From the NCBI GenBank assembly GCA_934090795.1, contig CAKOJQ010000001.1, positions 90,842-122,841 of the forward strand: a stretch of DNA of 32,000 bases, given 5' to 3'. Of this stretch, positions 10,415 to 28,881 are shown one piece after another. The stretch comes from an uncultured Bacilli bacterium (lineage in GTDB: Bacteria > Bacillota_I > Bacilli_A > RF39 > UBA660). Every line of letters starts with the position of its first letter. Positions within the stretch are counted from its first letter, which is position 1. The position numbers and the translations under genes were made by a program. The notes under the pieces are model-generated. The model saw only the letters and a list, made by a program, of their open reading frames with translations, ran no database searches and was not told the DNA's origin.

Positions 10415-10520
10415 AAATCTGTAACAACTATATTTTAACACTTATTTACTTATATTGTAAAGGAAAAGTTTTTTACAACATCTATCTCAATTCTCAAAAA
10501 TAAGGTTTTATATTTCCTTA

Positions 10521-10814
10521 TCATTTGAAAATCTCACTATGACTACCCGTTGCTACTAACAAAAGGTTAAGTCTATTATCTTCATATTGATAAACTAATA
10601 GCCAATCTGGTTCTATATGACACTCTCTACAATTCATATAATATTTATCGTTTATTAATTTATGGTCTTTATATTTCGGCTCTAATTCTTCCCGTTTTGC
10701 CAATTTATCAATTACATAATCTATTTTATCTAAGTCTTTTCCTTGTTTTGATACCTTTTTATATTGCTTTTTAAAGTTGCTTGATAAAACTAAAATGCAT
10801 TTTTCGCTAGTCAT
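10521..10814 (-). CDS. yafQ: Type II toxin, YafQ/RelE family mRNA interferase
   Basis: KYKDHKLINDKYYMNCRECHIEPDWLLVYQYEDNRLNLLLVATGSHSEIF matches the YafQ pattern (KDH.L......R.CH..PDWLL.Y......L...RTGSHS.LF). It overlaps the antitoxin gene by 8 nt. Confidence 0.85.
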   Translation of the reverse strand: MTSEKCILVLSSNFKKQYKKVSKQGKDLDKIDYVIDKLAKREELEPKYKDHKLINDKYYMNCRECHIEPDWLLVYQYEDNRLNLLLVATGSHSEIFK

Positions 10815-11091
10815 TTATTAGAGCCTTTCTTAACGCTTTAACGTCTTTGTAACTTTCTAGTTCTACTTTACCATTTTTATAATCTTCTATTTCTTGTAAA
10901 GCTTCTAATAATTCTTTACTTGGTCTAGGATTAACCACCTCAAAAGGTACACCATCTTTATTAATTAATTGTTTTATTGCCATATTAACGTATGTACTCA
11001 TATTTAACCCTAAATTACTTAAAATACCAGTTGCTAGTTCTTTGTCTTTTCTATCTACTTGTACGCTTATAGCCGTTGTTAAACTTTCCAT
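10807..11091 (-). CDS. dinJ: Type II antitoxin, RelB/DinJ family
   Basis: ISVQVDRKDKELATGILSNLGLNMSTYVNMAIKQLINKDGVPFEV has a DinJ-like ribbon-helix-helix N-terminus. It lies immediately upstream of the toxin and overlaps it. Confidence 0.8.
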   Translation of the reverse strand: MESLTTAISVQVDRKDKELATGILSNLGLNMSTYVNMAIKQLINKDGVPFEVVNPRPSKELLEALQEIEDYKNGKVELESYKDVKALRKALIND

Positions 11092-11466
11092 AATAACACC
11101 TCTTTCATAATTAAAATAATATCATAGTTTATATAAAATATCAAGTTATTATATGTGTAATATATTATATTTTATATAAATCTAATATATATTATGTTTT
11201 GATAGCAAAAAAATATACATAAAAAGATAAGTAGTTAAATTATTTTGCTTGTCTTTATCTATATAAACACATTATATGGTGGTCTTATGTTTGTATCTTG
11301 GTATAAAGTTGTTAATATCTATATCTTATCTAATAAACTAAGAATCAAAAAATTAAAATATTAACGTAACATTAATATTAGAAAAAAATATTTATCAGAA
11401 CAAGACATAAAATATGGATAATATAAAAATCATAAAATAGTATTAAAAAATACGTTTTTAATTTGA

Positions 11467-12555
11467 CTAGTCGCAAGCGACAAATCTAAATTTTTCTAAA
11501 TATTTTATATTATTATAACAATTGCCTAAACTTAAATAAGCCTTAAAACATGTAATAGAACAATTTATATCATTAATGTTAATATTTTTATTAATCATTT
11601 TTCTTAACTTTCTTCTTTGTCTATATATAGTTTTTCTACTTGATATTAAATATATTTTTCCATTATTAAGTAATTTATAGTTCCATTTACAAAACATAAA
11701 TGAATTAGTAATAGAAATTATTTTAGTTTTATTTAAATTAATTTTTATATGTAATTTATCAGCAATAATTTTATAATTATTCAAAACATTTAAAGCCTCA
11801 TCATAAGTTATACAAAATAAGATACTATCATCCATGTAACGAATTATGGGAACATTTTTATTAATAATAAATTTATCTAGTTCATTAGGATACATTAATG
11901 CTTCTCTTTGAGCTATTTCAATACCAAGTCCTAAACCATCACCTATAAATAAATAATCTTCAATAATTTTTATTGTATTTTGATTTTTGATATATTTATT
12001 GTGAATCTCATGAATTACATCATGATTACAACTTTCAAAAAATTTACTATAATCTATTATCACTACATAACCATTTAAACCATATTTATTAAACCATTTT
12101 CTTAATATGGTTTTAACTCTTTTTATACTAAAACTAAATCCTTTATTTATTGTACTTGCACCATTATCATAAATTAATTTACTATCATATAACGGTATTA
12201 ATATCTCATTTGATATAACTTTATGTATTAATCGATCTTTAATATGTGGTGCATCAATGTTTCTTTCTTTTCCTCTTTCATTAATTTTAAACTTATATGT
12301 TTTATTAACAGTATAAGTATTATTTTTTATATTAGTACAAGTACTACCAACAATTGAAAACATATGTAATTTAAAATTTATAGTAGACTTTTTATATCCT
12401 ACATTTCTAGTACATTTTTTAGCATAATTATATACCTTATTAAAGGTAAAACATTTATTAACATCATCATAATTATTACTATTGATAATTAATTTATCTT
12501 CTCTTTTCTCTTTTCTTCTTTGATATCTTAATTCTTTTCTTTCTAAACTATTCAT
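11467..12555 (-). CDS. DGR-type reverse transcriptase
   Basis: 362 aa with RT motifs in order: IDAPHIKDRLIHKVI, VVIIDYSKFFESCNHD, GLGLGIEIAQREALMYPNELD, IIRYMDDSILFC (YMDD catalytic box) and LHIKINLNKTKI. It sits 257 nt downstream of the TR on the same strand. SD AAAGGA lies 5 nt before the ATG. Confidence 0.9.
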   Translation of the reverse strand: MNSLERKELRYQRRKEKREDKLIINSNNYDDVNKCFTFNKVYNYAKKCTRNVGYKKSTINFKLHMFSIVGSTCTNIKNNTYTVNKTYKFKINERGKERNIDAPHIKDRLIHKVISNEILIPLYDSKLIYDNGASTINKGFSFSIKRVKTILRKWFNKYGLNGYVVIIDYSKFFESCNHDVIHEIHNKYIKNQNTIKIIEDYLFIGDGLGLGIEIAQREALMYPNELDKFIINKNVPIIRYMDDSILFCITYDEALNVLNNYKIIADKLHIKINLNKTKIISITNSFMFCKWNYKLLNNGKIYLISSRKTIYRQRRKLRKMINKNININDINCSITCFKAYLSLGNCYNNIKYLEKFRFVACD

Positions 12556-12567
12556 TTAATTCCTTTC

Positions 12568-12593
12568 AAAAAAAATCTGATGTACTACATCAG
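12568..12593 (-). terminator. Terminator-like hairpin plus U8 tract just upstream of the RT start
   Basis: In minus sense CTGATGTAGTACATCAG (arms CTGATGT/ACATCAG) is followed by A then TTTTTTTT, then GAAAGGAATTAA-ATG of the RT. Confidence 0.45.
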
Positions 12594-12743
12594 GTAAATA
12601 TTTACAATAGATGAAAAATAAGTAGTCATATATACATCCATGTAATTTATTAAATATTTAAATATAAACCATGCAAGAAGCGTCCGGATGCTATAACCAT
12701 CAGATAAATTTAGAAGTATGATACTTCAAGGATAAACTAATCC

Positions 12744-12760
12744 TTTCCTATTTCAAAAGT
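12744..12760 (-). repeat. 17-nt direct repeat flanking the TR, RT-proximal copy
   Basis: TTTCCTATTTCAAAAGT on the plus strand, identical to 12983-12999. It lies 52 nt from the TR edge. Confidence 0.7.
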
Positions 12761-12812
12761 AGCACTAAAGAGTTAATTAAAACATCTTCCCATCACTTGT
12801 TCCACTAAAAGA

Positions 12813-12928
12813 GGAAATCTGGCGCGAAACCATTGTTGTTATTAGCATTATTATTGTTGACGTTACCGTTGTTATTCACATTTAAGAAATTATTGTTATT
12901 ATTGGAATTAGCCGCGCGAAGCCACCAC
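12813..12928 (-). repeat. DGR template repeat (TR)
   Basis: In sense (minus) orientation: TGGTGGCTTCGCGCGGCT AAT TCC AAT AAT AAC AAT AAT TTC TTA AAT GTG AAT AAC AAC GGT AAC GTC AAC AAT AAT AAT GCT AAT AAC AAC AAT GGTTTCGCGCCAGATTTCC. It has 19 AAY codons, is non-coding, and aligns without gaps to 14286-14401 (offset 1473). Confidence 0.93.
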
Positions 12929-12982
12929 GAAAATAAAAACATTAATAACTAAAACTAAGGCTTACTCGTAATATACATTAGT

Positions 12983-12999
12983 TTTCCTATTTCAAAAGT
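12983..12999 (-). repeat. 17-nt direct repeat flanking the TR, accessory-gene-proximal copy
   Basis: TTTCCTATTTCAAAAGT on the plus strand, identical to 12744-12760. It lies 54 nt from the TR edge and covers the last codons and the TGA stop of the 12992-13540 ORF. Confidence 0.7.
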
Positions 13000-13540
13000 T
13001 TTCAAAAATTATTTTTTTGACAAACTTAGAAACCAATAAATCAATTATTTGATCATCATCTATATCTTTATCATTTATTTTCTTTAATTTTTTATTATCA
13101 CTTTCTAAAACCCCTTTTAATAATTTATATTGTTTATCATAAAGACTACCCAATATTTCTAATCTCTTATCAAGCATTTCTCTAGCTTCTGTTGTTGTAT
13201 ATGATTTACCATTTTTTCTCCCAAAACAATTTTTAGGATTGGTATATAACACCTCTACCATATCAGTTAATTTTTTATTTAATATATCTAAACAACTTTT
13301 AGATAGTAAAATAAACACTCTTCTAAGTAATATATCTTCATATCTTGTTGGATTAATACTATTAGCCATAGATACTAACTCAGCTTGTTTACACACATAC
13401 TTTTCGATCGGTATTATATAAATATTAGTCCATTTTTTATTTAGTTTAGAAGATAATCTTAATGTTTCAACTTGAATTACATAAGCATTATCCACATATT
13501 CTAAACCATTTGGCTTTCTTTTGAATTTGGGAATTGACAT
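12992..13540 (-). CDS. DGR accessory protein 1 (occupies the Avd position; basic, probably helical; family unverified)
   Basis: 182-aa ORF between the target gene and the TR, Lys-rich. It aligns without gaps over at least 56 aa to the adjacent ORF (NIYxIP...Y..K...YEDI...LS..CL..L..K..DM). Confidence 0.6.
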   Translation of the reverse strand: MSIPKFKRKPNGLEYVDNAYVIQVETLRLSSKLNKKWTNIYIIPIEKYVCKQAELVSMANSINPTRYEDILLRRVFILLSKSCLDILNKKLTDMVEVLYTNPKNCFGRKNGKSYTTTEAREMLDKRLEILGSLYDKQYKLLKGVLESDNKKLKKINDKDIDDDQIIDLLVSKFVKKIIFENF

Positions 13541-13555
13541 AAAACTTACTCTTTT

Positions 13556-14098
13556 CTAAAACAAAATTTTGATTACTTCTTCACTATAAATATTTAATAT
13601 ATTAGTAATATTAATTTTTTTATTTTTATATCTTAATAATATAAGTTCATTAATTCTTATTAATATATTAATATTTTTAAATATTCTTTTATATAAAGAA
13701 TTAACATAATTATATTTATCTATTAATTCTTTATTATATTTTTTAATATAATTTATTTTTTTATATTTTCTTTTACGACTTATACTTTCATAGTTATCAT
13801 ATATTCTATTAAATTGTAAATCGTACATATCTAAAAATTTATAATATAAAACTTTTAGATAACATCTTGATAGTTTTATCAAAAAATTACAAAATATTAT
13901 ATCTTCATAATTTTTTATTTTATAATTAATTAAATATTTAAATATATTATATTCTTTTACTAAATAATTACTTACAGGTATTTGATAAATGTTTGATTTA
14001 TTTATTTTTAATTTAGATACCAAAAATAACATTTCGCATTTTATATTAAAACTATCTTTATAAACATTTTTTATTAATTTATTATATTTATCTTTCAT
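13556..14098 (-). CDS. DGR accessory protein 2 (divergent tandem paralog of accessory protein 1)
   Basis: 180-aa ORF that stays open through extremely AT-rich DNA, where stops should be frequent. It shares the NIYQIP, YEDI, LSRCYL and FLDM blocks with the 12992-13540 product. I see no obvious SD. Confidence 0.5.
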   Translation of the reverse strand: MKDKYNKLIKNVYKDSFNIKCEMLFLVSKLKINKSNIYQIPVSNYLVKEYNIFKYLINYKIKNYEDIIFCNFLIKLSRCYLKVLYYKFLDMYDLQFNRIYDNYESISRKRKYKKINYIKKYNKELIDKYNYVNSLYKRIFKNINILIRINELILLRYKNKKINITNILNIYSEEVIKILF

Positions 14099-14111
14099 AA
14101 TATTTTATGCA

Positions 14112-14143
14112 CCCATCTGATTTCCTTACGTCAATCAGATGGG
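14112..14143 (-). other. Perfect 11-bp stem-loop just upstream of accessory ORF 2
   Basis: CCCATCTGATT-(10 nt)-AATCAGATGGG. On the plus strand it is followed by a T-rich run. In minus sense it ends 13 nt before the ATG at 14098. Confidence 0.5.
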
Positions 14144-14168
14144 ATTTTATTTTTTTAGTTTATTTTAC

Positions 14169-14209
14169 GGGCCACCTTTTTTACTCACTGTCGTTCGCGG
14201 AGGTGGCCC
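14169..14209 (-). other. GC-rich stem-loop downstream of the VR and target-gene stop
   Basis: GGGCCACCT-(23 nt)-AGGTGGCCC, a 9-bp stem with 7 G-C pairs in otherwise AT-rich DNA. It lies 66 nt past the stop codon and 77 nt past the VR edge. Confidence 0.5.
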
Positions 14210-14274
14210 TTAGGAACCGATATTCCTATCTTTATTTTTATCTATATATTATGCTTTACATATAATTTACATTT

Positions 14275-15681
14275 TTATCCGATGCGGAAAGCTGGCGCGA
14301 AACCAATGTTGCTATAAGCAGAACGATGGGTGACGTTACCGGCGTCACTCACACTAAAGAAAGTAGAGCCACTAGTGGAATAAGCCGCGCGAAGCCACCA
14401 CCAACTGCCGGAACTTGATGTTAGTGTTTTCTTTATGGCTGCAGTATAACTATTTGTTGTTACTTCTTGGTCTTTATAATAATCTAATTGTCTTGTATTA
14501 TTATAAGCTGTATCTCTTGCAGATAATGATGTCGTTGATGGTGATGCATCTTCCCATACTTCATGTCCACTTAATAAATATATTTTATCGGTTGATGTGA
14601 AGTTTGTTTCTCCACTGGTACTTCCATGGCCTGATACTACATTTGTTTTTATTATTACATCTTGTAAATCACTTGGTAATTTCTTTAAGAAATCACCATT
14701 GGCATAAGTTCTCATTGCACTTGCTGGCCATCCATCTACATTCCATCCGTAATTATATTGTGTTCCTTTATACTCTCCTGATGGATTCATGTTTCTATTT
14801 TCTACTATATCTACAAACTCAACAACAAATCCACAAGCCGTCTGGGAAAAGTTTAAGTCATTACATTCTTTTGGTGTTGTGTTATTGGCAACGCGCACTG
14901 TATAATTTTTTCCACCTATTTCTACTTCTTTTTCTGACCCTACTGGATATGCTTCAAGTTGTCCATCTTGTACTACTGCTGCTATTGTTTCCCATGAATC
15001 TGCTGCAAATGTTGTTGGTGTTGGTGGTTCATAATTTACAACTATCTTTCCATTTATAGTAGCACCTTTTTCACTATCTTGATTTAATCCTGTATCAGGA
15101 AATTGAATTATTAAATTAAATTCAATACTTTGTTCATTTTGATTTGCTTTAAATTCTCCAGTAACCATTTCTGTATATTTATTTCCTTTTTTTAATGTTC
15201 CATGAGTATATCCTGTATAAGTATCATTTCCTGGTATTGTTTGATTTAAATAATCTTTTTTTGTTTTACCATCTTCTGGTGTTACTACATAGTTTGCCGT
15301 TACATTTTCATTTGTTGTTGTTCTTTTTATATAGTAATGTATTTGTCCATCACTAAATGTTGATTTATATTTTAGTCCTACTTTATACGGCATCACTAAT
15401 CCATCGCCTGCAGCCATTCCTGTTGCTGTGTTTGTTCCTGTTAATGAGAATGTTTTATTAACAAGAATTTTATCACTTGGTTGAATATTTGTTACAGGTA
15501 ATATATTATCTGTTCCATCATTATAAGTTATTAACATCTTTCCTGTATCAATTGTTGCTTGGGCTGTTGATCCTTGATTGTTAAATGCACTAAAGTATGC
15601 AAATGTGATGCCACCAAAAACAAGTAATATACTTACAATTGTAATAATTATAACCATCGTGACTAATTTGTTTTCTTTCAT
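14275..15681 (-). CDS. DGR target: secreted or surface protein with a SipW/TasA-type signal peptide and a C-terminal WWLR...GFxPxF variable ligand-binding domain (DUF6273-like / C-type-lectin-like)
   Basis: I prefer the ATG at 15681 (MKENKLVTMVIIITIVSILLVFGGITFAYFSA...) because GAGGAAGG lies 9 nt upstream. The track start at 15747 is a TTG that reads through the promoter poly-G. The C-terminus is ...KIYLLSGHEVW...SWWWLRAAYSTSGSTFFSVSDAGNVTHRSAYSNIGFAPAFRIG. The VR covers the last 39 or so codons. Confidence 0.85.
   Translation of the reverse strand: MKENKLVTMVIIITIVSILLVFGGITFAYFSAFNNQGSTAQATIDTGKMLITYNDGTDNILPVTNIQPSDKILVNKTFSLTGTNTATGMAAGDGLVMPYKVGLKYKSTFSDGQIHYYIKRTTTNENVTANYVVTPEDGKTKKDYLNQTIPGNDTYTGYTHGTLKKGNKYTEMVTGEFKANQNEQSIEFNLIIQFPDTGLNQDSEKGATINGKIVVNYEPPTPTTFAADSWETIAAVVQDGQLEAYPVGSEKEVEIGGKNYTVRVANNTTPKECNDLNFSQTACGFVVEFVDIVENRNMNPSGEYKGTQYNYGWNVDGWPASAMRTYANGDFLKKLPSDLQDVIIKTNVVSGHGSTSGETNFTSTDKIYLLSGHEVWEDASPSTTSLSARDTAYNNTRQLDYYKDQEVTTNSYTAAIKKTLTSSSGSWWWLRAAYSTSGSTFFSVSDAGNVTHRSAYSNIGFAPAFRIG
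14286..14401 (-). repeat. DGR variable repeat (VR)
   Basis: Gapless 116-nt alignment to the TR gives 92 identities and 24 mismatches. All mismatches are at plus-strand T in the TR, which is A in the sense strand. 24 of 41 TR adenines are substituted and 0 of 75 other positions. Both ends are identical GC-rich anchors (TGGTGGCTTCGCGCGGCT and GGTTTCGCGCCAG). Confidence 0.93.
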
Positions 15682-15709
15682 ATTTTTCATCCTTCCTCTA
15701 CTATAGAAA

Positions 15710-15740
15710 ATTATACTATTAAAACACCCCCCCCAGTCAA
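15710..15740 (-). promoter_or_regulatory. Sigma-A-type promoter of the DGR target gene with a G8 tract in the spacer
   Basis: In minus sense: TTGACT-GGGGGGGGTGTTTTAATAG-TATAAT, a 19-nt spacer. The -35 is at 15735-15740, the G8 tract at 15727-15734, and the -10 at 15710-15715. Confidence 0.65.
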
Positions 15741-15952
15741 TATTCAATTTTTTTGAATTTATATTTATCTTTGATAATTATAAATTCAAAAAATAAAATA
15801 TATAAAAAATAGAAAGTTTGTGCAAAATGATTTGCATAACTTTTTTTAATTGTGTAAAATAATTTGCAAATTATCGAAAGAATATTAAGACAAAATAAAA
15901 GAAGAGATCCATCATTTGCAAAGCCTTTTCTCTTCCTTCAAAATATTAATAT

Positions 15953-15977
15953 AAAAAAAGGCACATAAGTACCTTTT
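15953..15977 (-). terminator. Probable rho-independent terminator after the acyltransferase pseudogene
   Basis: In minus sense AAAAGGTAC-TTAT-GTGCCTTTT (one mismatch in the stem) is followed by a T run. Confidence 0.45.
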
Positions 15978-16010
15978 AATAAATCAATTAATAATATAAA
16001 ATTAAATTAA

Positions 16011-17173
16011 CTATTTTTCTTTTTTAAAATTAAGTTTTGGAGTAATGTAGTTATCCATAATAAGCATTAATAAAATAGATAATAGAATTGTAATTACATA
16101 TGTTAATATATAAATTGTATGTAATCCTTTTACTGTTGTATTGTTAATATTACAAACTTTTTGAAGAACACCAATTATTGGATAATGTAACATATAAATA
16201 TAAAGTGCTAACTTACCAGGATATTTCCAAATAGGTTTATTTAATAAAGATGTTAAATAATCTTTGTTTAATAAAACTAAGAAAACAATAATTAAACATA
16301 AACCATTAATAGTTGCAAATGTGAATGTTGCACCCCAAATCATATGATAAATAACAATACATGTACATACAGCATTTACAATAGTTAAAAGAATTTTACC
16401 TAATTTACTAAACTCTTTATTACTAATTTTTTCAATAAGTTCATAAAGAACACATCCTAAACCAATTGTAAAGAATGCTTGAATAGCAGCTTCGCTAATA
16501 CCGGTAATGGGAAATTATACCACATTGGACTAATACCGTTAACATGGAAATATCCATATACAATTATAAATCCAACTGGGAATATTAAACCTACTATTAA
16601 ATCTTCACATTTTTCTAATAAATAGTAAATTACATAACTAACTACTAATAAGCTTGAGATAAACCAAAGAGGTCCATTCATTAACATGTGTCTTCCTGCT
16701 GACATTAAACCATAAGTATTATTACCAATACCTAAGCCAGTAACAACACATCCTAGCCATTCCCATAAACAATCAATAGCAATTCTTGGCCATTCATTAA
16801 TTGGAAATCCATTATAAATGTTAGTTAGTACAAAACCAAATAATAGACAAATTAAGAATGCAGGATATAAACCTTTTAATCTTCTTAAAAGATATTTTCC
16901 AGCTCCTTCTCTAGGTGCTAATTCAGATTTACTTTCTTTCCTTTCTAATTTACTCTTTTTAAATTTTATCATTAAGAAATATCCTGTAATTAAATAGAAA
17001 ATAATAATTACATCAAGACTTCCTTTGAACATTACACCACCAGTAGGCACTCCATTTTTTGTAATTAACCATGGACTAGTATGTCAATACATCATTGGAT
17101 AAATGATATAAACATGAACTAGAATGAAGATCATACAAGAAACAAAACGCCAAAATTCAACAGCATAATTCAT
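16011..17173 (-). pseudogene. Acyltransferase family 3 (O-acyltransferase) gene disrupted by one in-frame TGA and one frameshift
   Basis: From the ATG at 17173 the frame reads MNYAVEFWRFVSCMIFILVHVYIIYPMMY-TGA-HTSPWLITKNGVPTGGVMFKG... The frame is lost near 16505-16515 and continues in another frame as ITGISEAAIQAFFTIGLGCVLYELIEK...YHMIWGATFTF... to the stop at 16011. The product is hydrophobic and multi-pass throughout. Confidence 0.7.
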
Positions 17174-17190
17174 TTGTTTTATGTTTTAGG

Positions 17191-17916
17191 TTAGTTCAAT
17201 GTTTTGGTTTTACCTTTTTTATACTCTAAATATTCTGATAATTTCATTTCTTGATATTTAAAATTATATGGATTATAAAATAGTATTAAATCTTGTCTTT
17301 CAATATATAATTTTTTTACGGTTTCTAAACTTAGAGTATTATAAATATTTCTAGTAAAACGATATATAGGAACTATACTTAAAAAGTAATTTAATATTTT
17401 TTCTCTATCATCAATTATTTCACCAGTACTTTTATTTACAAGTACTAATATATTTATTTTTTCTGGTGGTATTATATCGTATGTGTAGCAATCTTCGGGA
17501 TATAAATCAATAACGTTAGGAATATCTTTAAACATTAAGTATACTCCATCTCCTAAATATTCATTAAAACTTTCATATTGCATAGTGTTTTTAGTCGCTT
17601 CTAGCGTTTCAATCATTGATTCTATTTCTTTTAACTTTTTTATATTGGGTTTGGCTTCATTTATATTTTTGCGACATGCTTTTATTTCCTTTTCATAATA
17701 CTCTATAAGTTCTTTTCCAGATTCTCCAGTATGAGTATTATAATAATATAAAAGATTTGTATATAATAATATGGCGTTATTAATTCCAGATGAAAAGAAT
17801 ATAGCACACTTTTTATCACCTATACTTTGACATCTAGTCCCATTTTGAGGAACTAATCCATTTTTACTTATGTTATCTAAATTACTGTAATTGGTAAAAT
17901 GATAATATTTATTCAT
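17191..17916 (-). CDS. Hypothetical protein (N-terminus faintly resembles Tpt1/DarT-type ADP-ribosyltransferase-fold proteins)
   Basis: I prefer the ATG at 17916 with SD GAGGTG. The N-terminus is MNKYYHFTNYSNLDNISKNGLVPQNGTRCQSIGDKKCAIFFSSG. Function is not established. Confidence 0.55.
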   Translation of the reverse strand: MNKYYHFTNYSNLDNISKNGLVPQNGTRCQSIGDKKCAIFFSSGINNAILLYTNLLYYYNTHTGESGKELIEYYEKEIKACRKNINEAKPNIKKLKEIESMIETLEATKNTMQYESFNEYLGDGVYLMFKDIPNVIDLYPEDCYTYDIIPPEKINILVLVNKSTGEIIDDREKILNYFLSIVPIYRFTRNIYNTLSLETVKKLYIERQDLILFYNPYNFKYQEMKLSEYLEYKKGKTKTLN

Positions 17917-27106: not shown

Positions 27107-28828
27107 TTAACCTATTTTATAGGGATTTGTTTTTTCACCAGTTCCACTAGCTATCAAGATATCAGATTTCAAGAAAACGGTCGGCAGAACCACGGTGGAG
27201 TTACACGCGAAGTTACTATCAACAGCACCGTCCCAACGCACAACGAACACAATATTCGAGCGTCCAGAGAAAGTCGACAATGTCCAGTACCAGCTAGACT
27301 TTTGTAACCAATTGTCTAATTTACATTTTGTATTAGTATAATCATATTGTTCTTTTGCTTTATCATACACTACTCCAGCTCTTAAATTTTCTCTACATTC
27401 ACTATTTGTTGATGCATATCCATAATCACTGGCATATATTAGTCCAACCTTACCTGTCCAATCAGTAGGGCGGCTATTTTGATAGGTGATTATTCCTCTT
27501 TCTTTATTATATTGATCTAATAGAGGCAATCCATATGGTGGAGTAGTTGGGTTACTATAACTATTTCCGCCAATGTTCCATACACTTTCACTTATCATAT
27601 TTTGATAATTACTTTTTATAACGTTTGTATAATCAAATACTCCAGTTTGACGAAATACTGGTTTCGTAGTTGTTGAATCATAATATGAATTATACCAATT
27701 ATTCTTATTTGCAGTTAAAGCTGTATTTAAATAATCTCCGTTTAATTCCTTCATTAAATCTGCTTCTGTCCAATTATTAAATCCATAATTATCATTTCCT
27801 GTTGCATCCAATGAATAATTGCCTAAAGATTCATTTCTAACTAATTTAATCTTTCTTTCAATTTTACCAGTTGAATCTTTTACATTAAAAATTCCAACTA
27901 TTCTCCATAGTTCTCCTATGTTACCAAACTCAACGTAATTTCTAGGCTCAGCACCTGTATATCTTACATTCTTATCTACAGTTGGATCTATAAACATTCC
28001 GTGTATATTGTTATTATCTAACTCCTGCACTTTACTTACATATTCTACCGCATTTATTCCTTTACTTTCAAAATTAACAATTAACTTATTTGGAATATTA
28101 TCTAAATTTGATACATTAATATCCCATTTTCCAGTTGCATAATTGCAAGTAAAACTGACATTACTATCTTTTAACTCAGTATTATTTTTATAAGCTGTTG
28201 ATGTTGCTCGGTAAAAGCAAATTGATGGTAAGTCCTGCTTTTCTACTCCATCTACATATGCTACTATATCTATATCTTTATCTAAACTTACTACATCATT
28301 TATTTGATTTACTAGTTCTAAATCATTCCATATATATCCTGCATTTAAATTAAGTTTTATATAATAATCATTATTACTTTTATTATTTGTTAATATAGTT
28401 AAAGACTTAGTCTTGTTTGTATTAATAGTTCTACTTACTTCACTAGATTCATCTTCTTTAGTTACACTTATATCACTTGGTATATTATTACTTGTCTCTG
28501 TACAATTTTGATTATTACATAATTCATATGTAAATTCATATTTAACATCTATTTTATTTAAATTAGTTAATATTATATTAAATTGTTCTATCTTACCTGC
28601 TTGTAAATGTAATATTCTATCATTTGACGTGCCACTATTTGTTGTTATATTAAATGATAAATCATTAACCTTTATATTAGCTATCTTTTTATTTTGACTT
28701 GATGTAAACATCGATAATGAATAACCTAAAGTAAATATAAATAACATTAACACTCCAATTATAGTTAATATCTTTGCTTGTTTATCTTTTTTTATTAAAT
28801 TAAAAAAATTGATAAGTTTAGTTTTCAT
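27107..28828 (-). CDS. Secreted or surface protein, paralogous in architecture to the DGR target (N-terminal anchor/signal, C-terminal WxW...LPxVFL domain)
   Basis: 573 aa with SD AGGAG 9 nt before the ATG. It has an N-terminal hydrophobic segment, and the C-terminus is ...GLIYASDYGYAS...SSWYWTLSTFSGRSNIVFVVRWDGAVDSNFACNSTVVLPTVFLKSDILIASGTGEKTNPYKIG. Confidence 0.75.
   Translation of the reverse strand: MKTKLINFFNLIKKDKQAKILTIIGVLMLFIFTLGYSLSMFTSSQNKKIANIKVNDLSFNITTNSGTSNDRILHLQAGKIEQFNIILTNLNKIDVKYEFTYELCNNQNCTETSNNIPSDISVTKEDESSEVSRTINTNKTKSLTILTNNKSNNDYYIKLNLNAGYIWNDLELVNQINDVVSLDKDIDIVAYVDGVEKQDLPSICFYRATSTAYKNNTELKDSNVSFTCNYATGKWDINVSNLDNIPNKLIVNFESKGINAVEYVSKVQELDNNNIHGMFIDPTVDKNVRYTGAEPRNYVEFGNIGELWRIVGIFNVKDSTGKIERKIKLVRNESLGNYSLDATGNDNYGFNNWTEADLMKELNGDYLNTALTANKNNWYNSYYDSTTTKPVFRQTGVFDYTNVIKSNYQNMISESVWNIGGNSYSNPTTPPYGLPLLDQYNKERGIITYQNSRPTDWTGKVGLIYASDYGYASTNSECRENLRAGVVYDKAKEQYDYTNTKCKLDNWLQKSSWYWTLSTFSGRSNIVFVVRWDGAVDSNFACNSTVVLPTVFLKSDILIASGTGEKTNPYKIG
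27173..27292 (-). other. VR-like, GC-rich patch with no cognate TR in this window
   Basis: About 51% GC by hand count, against about 25% in the surroundings. It aligns residue-for-residue in length and scaffold positions with the TR-encoded peptide (S7, V16, G20, V22, A27, P35). 16 of 19 codons at the TR Asn positions are NNY. Confidence 0.4.
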
Positions 28829-28853: not shown

Positions 28854-28881
28854 ATTATATTACTAAATACCCCCCCGTCAA
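28854..28881 (-). promoter_or_regulatory. Sigma-A-type promoter of the 27107-28828 gene with a G7 tract in the spacer
   Basis: In minus sense: TTGACG-GGGGGGTATTTAGTAA-TATAAT, a 16-nt spacer. The C7 run on the plus strand is at 28870-28876. The layout is homologous to the promoter at 15710-15740. Confidence 0.65.

Follow-up and report, generated by a model that had tools for sequence, protein, structure and literature searches.

Whether a homopolymer lodged inside a promoter acts as a switch of expression, as a fixed element or as a relic is the question raised by a run of eight G residues upstream of a DGR target gene in an uncultured Bacilli bacterium. The run lies in the 32,000-nt stretch of DNA analyzed here (the window, to which all coordinates refer unless another contig is named), and a sequence-only reading had proposed that it is a slipped-strand phase switch stacked on DGR diversification. 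Positions 15740-15710 of the minus strand read TTGACT-GGGGGGGG-TGTTTTAATAG-TATAAT, exactly as described there. The -35 hexamer TTGACT (15735..15740, minus strand) matches TTGACA at five of six positions and the -10 hexamer TATAAT (15710..15715, minus strand) is perfect, so the description of both as near-consensus also stands. The spacer between them is 19 nt long. Its 5' part is the G8 homopolymer (15727..15734, minus strand; C8 on the plus strand), followed by the remaining 11 nt, TGTTTTAATAG (15716..15726, minus strand). This arrangement, TTGACT-G8-N11-TATAAT, is that of a promoter in which a homopolymer between -35 and -10 contributes to spacer length. The GC content of the window is ~25%, only two G/C runs of at least 7 nt occur in its 32 kb, and a first-order Markov model predicts ~0.017 runs of at least 8 nt per window. 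The promoter scan also returned a weaker -10 candidate that the sequence-only reading did not mention, TAGTAT (15713..15718, minus strand), spaced 16 nt from the -35 hexamer (TTGACT-16-TAGTAT, 9/12 matches); its use could keep the G8 state active.

Downstream of the hexamers, a ribosome-binding site, GAGGAAGG (15691..15698, minus strand), is conserved in paralogues and is followed by two ATG codons, at 15690 and 15681. The gene starts at 15681 (MKENK), because database gene calls (P0001, 468 aa) use this codon and because the close homologue L017 lacks the first ATG, which is replaced there by AAG. The start at 15690 was rejected, as the resulting 471-aa form has no exact-protein match and the 468-aa form matches P0001; a 490-aa open reading frame with a TTG start is an artefact that begins near the -35 hexamer, 5' of the ribosome-binding site. 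A terminator-like hairpin of the upstream gene, found by a terminator scan at 15956..15977 (minus strand), indicates that the target gene is its own transcription unit. Comparison of paralogues at different loci shows a conserved block, containing the predicted promoter, from about -50 to the ATG, with divergent sequence further upstream; paralogues at unrelated loci have the -35, the -10, the 5'UTR and the ribosome-binding site in common, nearly base for base. The TTGACT hexamer is unchanged across the paralogous promoters L015, L016, L017, L086, L087 and L004, and TATAAT is unchanged in all 19 G-tract promoters found. When four promoters were compared from the -35 to the start codon, seven of the nine variable positions fell in the tract or in the 3 nt that follow it. 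Conservation therefore lends strong comparative support to the TTGACT/TATAAT pair as a real promoter.

The attribution of this promoter to a DGR target, made in the sequence-only reading, is confirmed. The reverse transcriptase (RT; 11467..12555, minus strand) matches Pfam RVT_1 (E=3.5e-10). The template repeat (TR; 12813-12931, minus strand) is located 258 nt 5' of the start of the RT gene and forms a 119-nt repeat pair with the variable repeat (VR; 14286-14404, minus strand), in which all 24 mismatches fall at TR adenines. The target gene (14275..15681, minus strand) encodes the 468-aa protein 100% identical to P0001. Its C-terminal domain is DUF6273 (Pfam, E=5e-19), and the VR spans the last ~40 codons of this domain. 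A DGR-type RT adjoining the TR, differences between TR and VR restricted to adenines and a VR at the C-terminus of the target are thus found together, and the DGR in the window is genuine. The N-terminus of the target carries a SipW/TasA (camelysin)-type signal-anchor (Peptidase_M73 match at residues 8-86, 8e-5) and the middle region is beta-rich. A structure model of the protein, built with 36 homologues, reached a pLDDT of 84, and its sole significant PDB match was the Thomasclavelia ramosa IgA peptidase; DUF6273 is named in a paper on gut-bacterial IgA-cleaving metallopeptidases (PMC12402451).

Two open reading frames on the minus strand occupy the usual position of Avd: one of 182 aa (12992-13540), which matches phrog_30516 (unknown function), and one of 180 aa (13556-14098). 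A Pfam search of both gave no match. Beside the RT of the sister species, the 182-aa frame is 88-90% conserved and the 180-aa frame only ~50%. Strains ~96% identical to the window (L055, L059) run directly from a 241-aa gene to rimP, and window positions ~10471-17208 therefore constitute a 6.7-kb accessory island, containing a RelB/YafQ pair, the RT, the TR, the two 180-aa-class frames, the target and acyltransferase fragments. A RelB/YafQ pair is also found after the RT in L067, a contig of the sister species. The acyltransferase fragments are an Acyl_transf_3 gene split into two minus-strand frames of 197 and 110 aa (16457-17050 and 16011-16343), just upstream of the target promoter, possibly a pseudogene carried by the island. 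Identical or near-identical sequences are present in human-gut metagenome assemblies (Hadza and others), and the relatives are labelled as uncultured Bacilli, Tenericutes or Mycoplasmatota MAGs. The VR and the entire target protein are identical in the window and in L060, genomes that differ at 50 positions over 15.8 kb; with the VR unchanged, the comparison gives no indication that DGR diversification is under way between the two samples.

The tract is not a peculiarity of one promoter. Relatives of the target were drawn from species-representative genomes, metagenomes and assemblies, and ~588 kb of lineage DNA was searched for G/C runs of at least 6 nt. Of the 20 runs found, 19 are immediately preceded by TTGAC(N) and followed by TATAAT at a distance of 10-11 nt, and the remaining one is located inside a tRNA; a further 127 kb of lineage DNA contained no G/C run of at least 6 nt. 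The pentamer TTGAC occurs in this DNA at a frequency of 3.9e-4 per position. The 19 promoters are not all independent, as many are orthologues or paralogues, and even with this non-independence the association between G runs and promoters is far beyond chance. The claim that a G8 run at this GC content is very unlikely to arise by chance is thus upheld, both by the Markov expectation and by the promoter position of 19 of the 20 runs. All 19 copies have TTGAC before the run, TATAAT 10-11 nt after it and a constant distance to the ribosome-binding site, and the sense strand always carries G, never C. Every gene inspected 3' of a G-tract promoter belongs to a family of signal-anchored, SipW/TasA-type mosaic surface proteins. 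Protein identity between the species that retain the tract is only 52-62%, and the GC content of the DNA is 25.6%; such retention implies selection in favour of the tract. Scans of viral contigs for both promoter types gave no match, and therefore no sign of a phage-borne cassette. Most of the 37 metagenome matches to a degenerate pattern of the promoter were discarded as chance occurrences in unrelated organisms. One metagenomic contig with a GC content of 0.38 (L047, 98-139) has TTGAC followed by G11 upstream of TATAAT.

Differences between homologous promoters are almost confined to the tract, which is G6, G7, G8 or interrupted, with spacers of 15-19 nt. The close subfamily has the form TTGACT-tract-YRTTTTAATWG-TATAAT-TTTTCTATAGTAGAGGA, a pattern to which the 11 nt after the tract in the window conform. 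Within it, G8 with a 19-nt spacer is found in the window and at two other loci (L015, L086), and G7 with an 18-nt spacer at one locus represented by two samples (L087/L088). The syntenic orthologue of the sister species (L004) has G7 with a 17-nt spacer. Two further copies are interrupted, reading GGGATGA (L016, which by its neighbouring genes is the same locus as L087) and GGGGAGA (L017); both tracts have a length of 7, a spacer of 18 nt and intact genes on their 3' side. As such interrupted tracts are non-slippable and stand at 18 nt before intact genes, the G8 state with its 19 nt is one step beyond a working spacing and on that account probably low or OFF. Three loci at G8 and 19 nt imply either that the OFF state is favoured or that 19 nt works in this organism. 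The expectation that the loss of one or two G residues would restore the spacing holds in part: one G lost reaches the 18 nt of the locked homologues, and a second loss is not needed. The CGCTTGAC subfamily shows the same kind of variation, with G7+10 and a spacer of 16 nt in most copies, G6+10 and 15 nt in L033 and L020, G7+11 and 17 nt in L027, and G6+11 and 17 nt in a TTGACA copy in L032. Here, the G6 of L033 and the G7 of L003/L011/L032/L040 are set in an identical TAAACCGAGA remainder.

A comparable promoter occurs outside the lineage. In an unrelated lineage (GC 0.32), TTGACT-Gn-ACAAGAGC-TATAAT is present upstream of a 571-aa zinc-ribbon, PAPS-reductase-like protein with G8 in one assembly and G9 in the other (L019 6445-6481 and L051 12951-12988), and the two contigs are 99.55% identical. 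G runs in promoter spacers therefore change length in nature, and this promoter is likely, judging from the two assemblies, to be genuinely phase-variable.

The other long G/C run of the window has the same design. Between gyrB and the gene of a 573-aa protein lies a promoter on the minus strand, TTGAC-G7(28876-28870)-TATTTAGTAA-TATAAT (28854..28881). The gene that it precedes (27107..28828, minus strand) encodes a surface protein with a signal-anchor like that of the DGR target and a lectin-like C-terminus; a Pfam search and an exact-protein look-up of the 573-aa translation both gave no match. In L032 (~8900) and L040 (~4800), a G7 promoter drives only an 87-aa remnant of a homologue of this protein, followed by unrelated sequence, and a homopolymer frameshift was rejected as the origin of this remnant in favour of a rearrangement. 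One subfamily of G-run promoters also has highly conserved flanks, AATGTTCGCTTGAC-G7-TAAACCGAGATATAATTTCACTATA. The CGCTTGAC subfamily contains an 18-bp inverted repeat, CCGTCAAGCGAACATTCG...CGAATGTTCGCTTGACGG, placed around ~46 nt of AT-rich DNA (L003 9868-9950; also L005, L006, L011 and L032), the right arm of which overlaps the -35 and the first two G's. Folded as a DNA hairpin, it gives -24.5 kcal/mol (z = -8.9). An operator pair, a cassette boundary and a hairpin are the candidate roles; a promoter flip by an inverton was rejected, because inverting the ~46-nt segment leaves the -35 and the -10 unchanged. The G8 promoter of the window does not have this inverted repeat.

At the locus itself the tract is constant. 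It reads G8 in five of five samples (ERZ28615947, ERZ27287033, ERR7745438, ERR7738222 and ERR7746739; carriers L001/L082, L060, L083, L084 and L085), all of them consensus assemblies, in which minority length variants stay hidden. ERZ28615947 is identical to the window and ERZ27287033 is 99.67% identical with an identical VR; the other three are Logan assemblies. The gyrB-adjacent promoter is likewise G7 in four of four genomes (the window, L058, the 96% identical L055 and the sister species L004). Length polymorphism at one and the same locus is therefore not observed at consensus level, and single-G differences in this lineage are seen only between paralogues or species; the heterogeneity across samples to which the sequence-only reading had looked for confirmation did not appear in these consensus assemblies. 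The three Logan contigs run through the tract and break 32 nt past it. These ends were considered as marks of heterogeneity and rejected, since the 31-mers become common to paralogous promoters there, and the break is therefore repeat-induced, with no major branch at the tract. As an internal control, indels between near-identical strains were scored, and none lies in an A/T or G homopolymer, a result that is uninformative on slippage. The constancy of G8 is absence of evidence at consensus level and not proof of stability.

The second half of the earlier proposal, the stacking of a switch on a DGR, depends on whether the tract and the retroelement belong together. They co-occur in this strain, and the co-occurrence is real, but it is not a general design. 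The sister species carries a DGR (RT 83-87% identical) and a DUF6273 target directly after clpP; the promoter of that target is TTGTTT-17-TGTTATAAT, with no G run, and the sequence at the position homologous to G8 reads GATGATTAT. Conversely, no RT was present in the DNA retrieved around the G-tract genes of L003-L006, L011, L015-L017 and L086-L088. A general coupling was accordingly rejected, as sister-species DGR targets do without the tract and an RT is lacking in the vicinity of most G-tract promoters. In the window, two separate systems seem to have met on one gene by chance. One paralogue, L015, located at another locus (by T2SSE ATPase, RecD2 and L19 genes) and 91% identical to the target, likewise has a promoter with G8 and an end that resembles a VR. 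It was considered as a trans-target of the window TR and rejected, because its VR-like end has 10 non-adenine mismatches to that TR.

How might these observations be explained? It is proposed that the G8 run sets the length of the spacer in a sigma-A-type promoter driving the DGR target, and that a cassette, TTGAC(N)-G6-8-N10-11-TATAAT, has been placed before members of the SipW/TasA-signal surface-protein family. By their nature, G/C homopolymers of 7-8 nt are liable to gain or lose one base by strand slippage, and promoter strength depends steeply on the spacing between -35 and -10. A change in tract length would thus amount to a heritable and reversible setting of the expression of each paralogue, a phase or "volume" dial, with the sequenced G8, 19-nt state probably low or OFF and the loss of one G turning the gene ON. 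Signal-anchored variable surface proteins are the usual cargo of contingency loci. The proposal supposes that slippage would occur at a useful rate, that a change in length would alter transcription, that 19 nt would be weaker than 18 or 17 and that G8 would be the low state. We hold such a spacer-length dial, acting across the multigene family, to be about evenly balanced between right and wrong. The G8 tract is real and non-random; as a phase switch it is plausible and unproven. Of the original claim of a slipped-strand switch, the conserved promoter, the non-random run and the single-G differences between homologues speak in its favour, and the constant length at the locus, at consensus level, speaks against it. 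So does the strong predominance of G7 as the modal length, and among repeats with proven phase variation, tracts of 7-8 nt count as short.

The same constancy fits a tract that does not switch to any meaningful extent. The run could be a fixed cis element, part of the operator of a regulator or a structural element of the spacer, the length of which is under selection. G7 is modal in ~10 promoters of several species and G8 is constant in the five samples, the flanks of one subfamily are conserved, the 18-bp inverted repeat described above resembles a pair of operator sites, and the sense strand carries G in every copy. However, the GGGATGA and GGGGAGA versions stand in otherwise intact promoters before intact genes, so that an unbroken stretch of 7-8 G's is dispensable; among the copies, the tract measures 6, 7 or 8 nt and the spacer 15-19 nt; the inverted repeat is absent from the promoter in question; and the constant strand may be simple inheritance from a common ancestral cassette. 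We consider such a fixed element, the main rival of the dial, possible, with the chances leaning clearly against it. Common ancestry is also the starting point for regarding the tract as a passive relic of an ancestral promoter cassette, spread with the gene family by duplication and recombination and having no function of its own. All of the promoters are plausibly homologous, and decayed copies (GGGATGA, GGGGAGA and, in the sister species, GATGATTAT) occur with no loss of the gene. An unselected G7-8 at 25.6% GC should nevertheless decay fast, and the tract is intact in most copies, in species with proteins only 52-62% identical; moreover, long G runs outside these tracts are almost absent from the genomes concerned. 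A functionless relic is therefore unlikely.

Two further explanations concern the reading of the sequence itself. Reiterative transcription is known to take place at G runs located at +1, for example in B. subtilis pyrG, and the run could be such a start region, or a leader served by a promoter further upstream. A weak -10-like sequence, GAATAT, is indeed found just upstream of TTGACT in the window, but no -10-like sequence precedes the run in the CGCTTGAC subfamily, and in all 19 copies TTGAC directly adjoins the run, TATAAT follows it by 10-11 nt and the distance to the ribosome-binding site is constant; a start region or leader of this kind is highly improbable. Finally, homopolymers are error-prone on some sequencing platforms, and the tract might have been a sequencing or assembly artefact. 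The same G8 was obtained in independent SPAdes, MEGAHIT and Logan assemblies of five samples, and the design recurs in many assemblies, by which an artefact is effectively refuted.

A spacer-length dial of the kind proposed would belong to a well-known class of mechanisms. The porA promoter of Neisseria meningitidis has a poly-G tract in its -35/-10 spacer, and the related opc promoter a poly-C tract. The likeness is close: the promoter of a surface-protein gene has a G/C homopolymer in its spacer, and one-base changes shift the spacer and with it the expression ("volume control"). The Neisseria tracts, however, are ~9-14 nt long and their variation has been shown experimentally, whereas the tracts described here have 6-8 nt, follow the -35 directly and belong to a Gram-positive-type low-GC lineage, in which their variation within a strain is a prediction. 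In Mycoplasma hyorhinis, a poly-A tract is located in the promoter spacer of each member of the vlp family of surface lipoproteins. There, too, the organism is Mollicutes-related, with a reduced genome of low GC, the variable surface proteins are encoded by a multigene family, and each paralogue has a homopolymer of its own, allowing independent ON/OFF states. It differs in having poly-A tracts of ~17-20 nt rather than G6-8, and Vlp proteins vary by the number of internal repeats and not by a retroelement. Promoter variation of the vlp type in mycoplasmas has been reviewed (PMC10502178). The Helicobacter pylori sabA gene has a poly-T tract beside the -35 (PMC11162790). As in fim2/fim3 and hifA/B, a simple repeat in or beside the core promoter of an adhesin or fimbrial gene tunes transcription there via spacing or phasing; the three differ from the present case in repeat type, position and taxa, and all of them are experimentally verified. 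The Bordetella pertussis fim2/fim3 promoters contain poly-C, and the Haemophilus influenzae hifA/B spacer a TA repeat.

Among retroelements, Mtd of the Bordetella phage BPP-1 is the archetype of a DGR with a C-type-lectin-like target. The system in the window resembles it in the RT, in the adenine-specific TR/VR pair and in the location of the VR at the C-terminus of a binding domain. It is different in its location, a 6.7-kb chromosomal island of accessory DNA that also contains a RelB/YafQ toxin-antitoxin pair, in having two unannotated 180-aa-class frames in place of Avd, and in the SipW/TasA-type signal and the homopolymer promoter of its target. Phage DGR targets with DUF6273 have been described (PMC10743442, PMC11792537). 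Our literature search found no report of a repeat-containing promoter of a DGR target and no report of phase variation in RF39-like bacteria. The class of mechanism is an established one; the novelty lies in the lineage, in a tight -35-G-run cassette common to a gene family and in the occurrence of this cassette on a DGR target.

Switching of the tract would, if real, give the first hint of repeat-based promoter phase variation in an abundant uncultured gut Bacilli/"Tenericutes" lineage; a strategy known from Neisseria, Haemophilus, Bordetella and Mycoplasma would be at work here across a whole family of secreted binding proteins, and a DGR-diversified protein would be gated ON/OFF at a second level. 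A wider picture, which we offer as speculative and rather doubtful, is that of a genome-wide contingency system. Each paralogue with a SipW/TasA signal and a DUF6273 tip would have its own -35-linked poly-G rheostat, so that shifting subsets of the family would be displayed, and a mobile DGR island would have captured one of the genes, producing a hypermutated tip that is gated ON/OFF, possibly with gated read-through into the DGR accessory genes and the TR. If true, this would amount to a hitherto undescribed system with two layers of variation. The G-run promoter motif is in any case a practical marker, as nearly every long G run in these genomes flags the promoter of a surface protein. Phase variation of these promoters, if true, would bear on the evasion of IgA or phage by commensals and on the way in which metagenomic consensus sequences are read.
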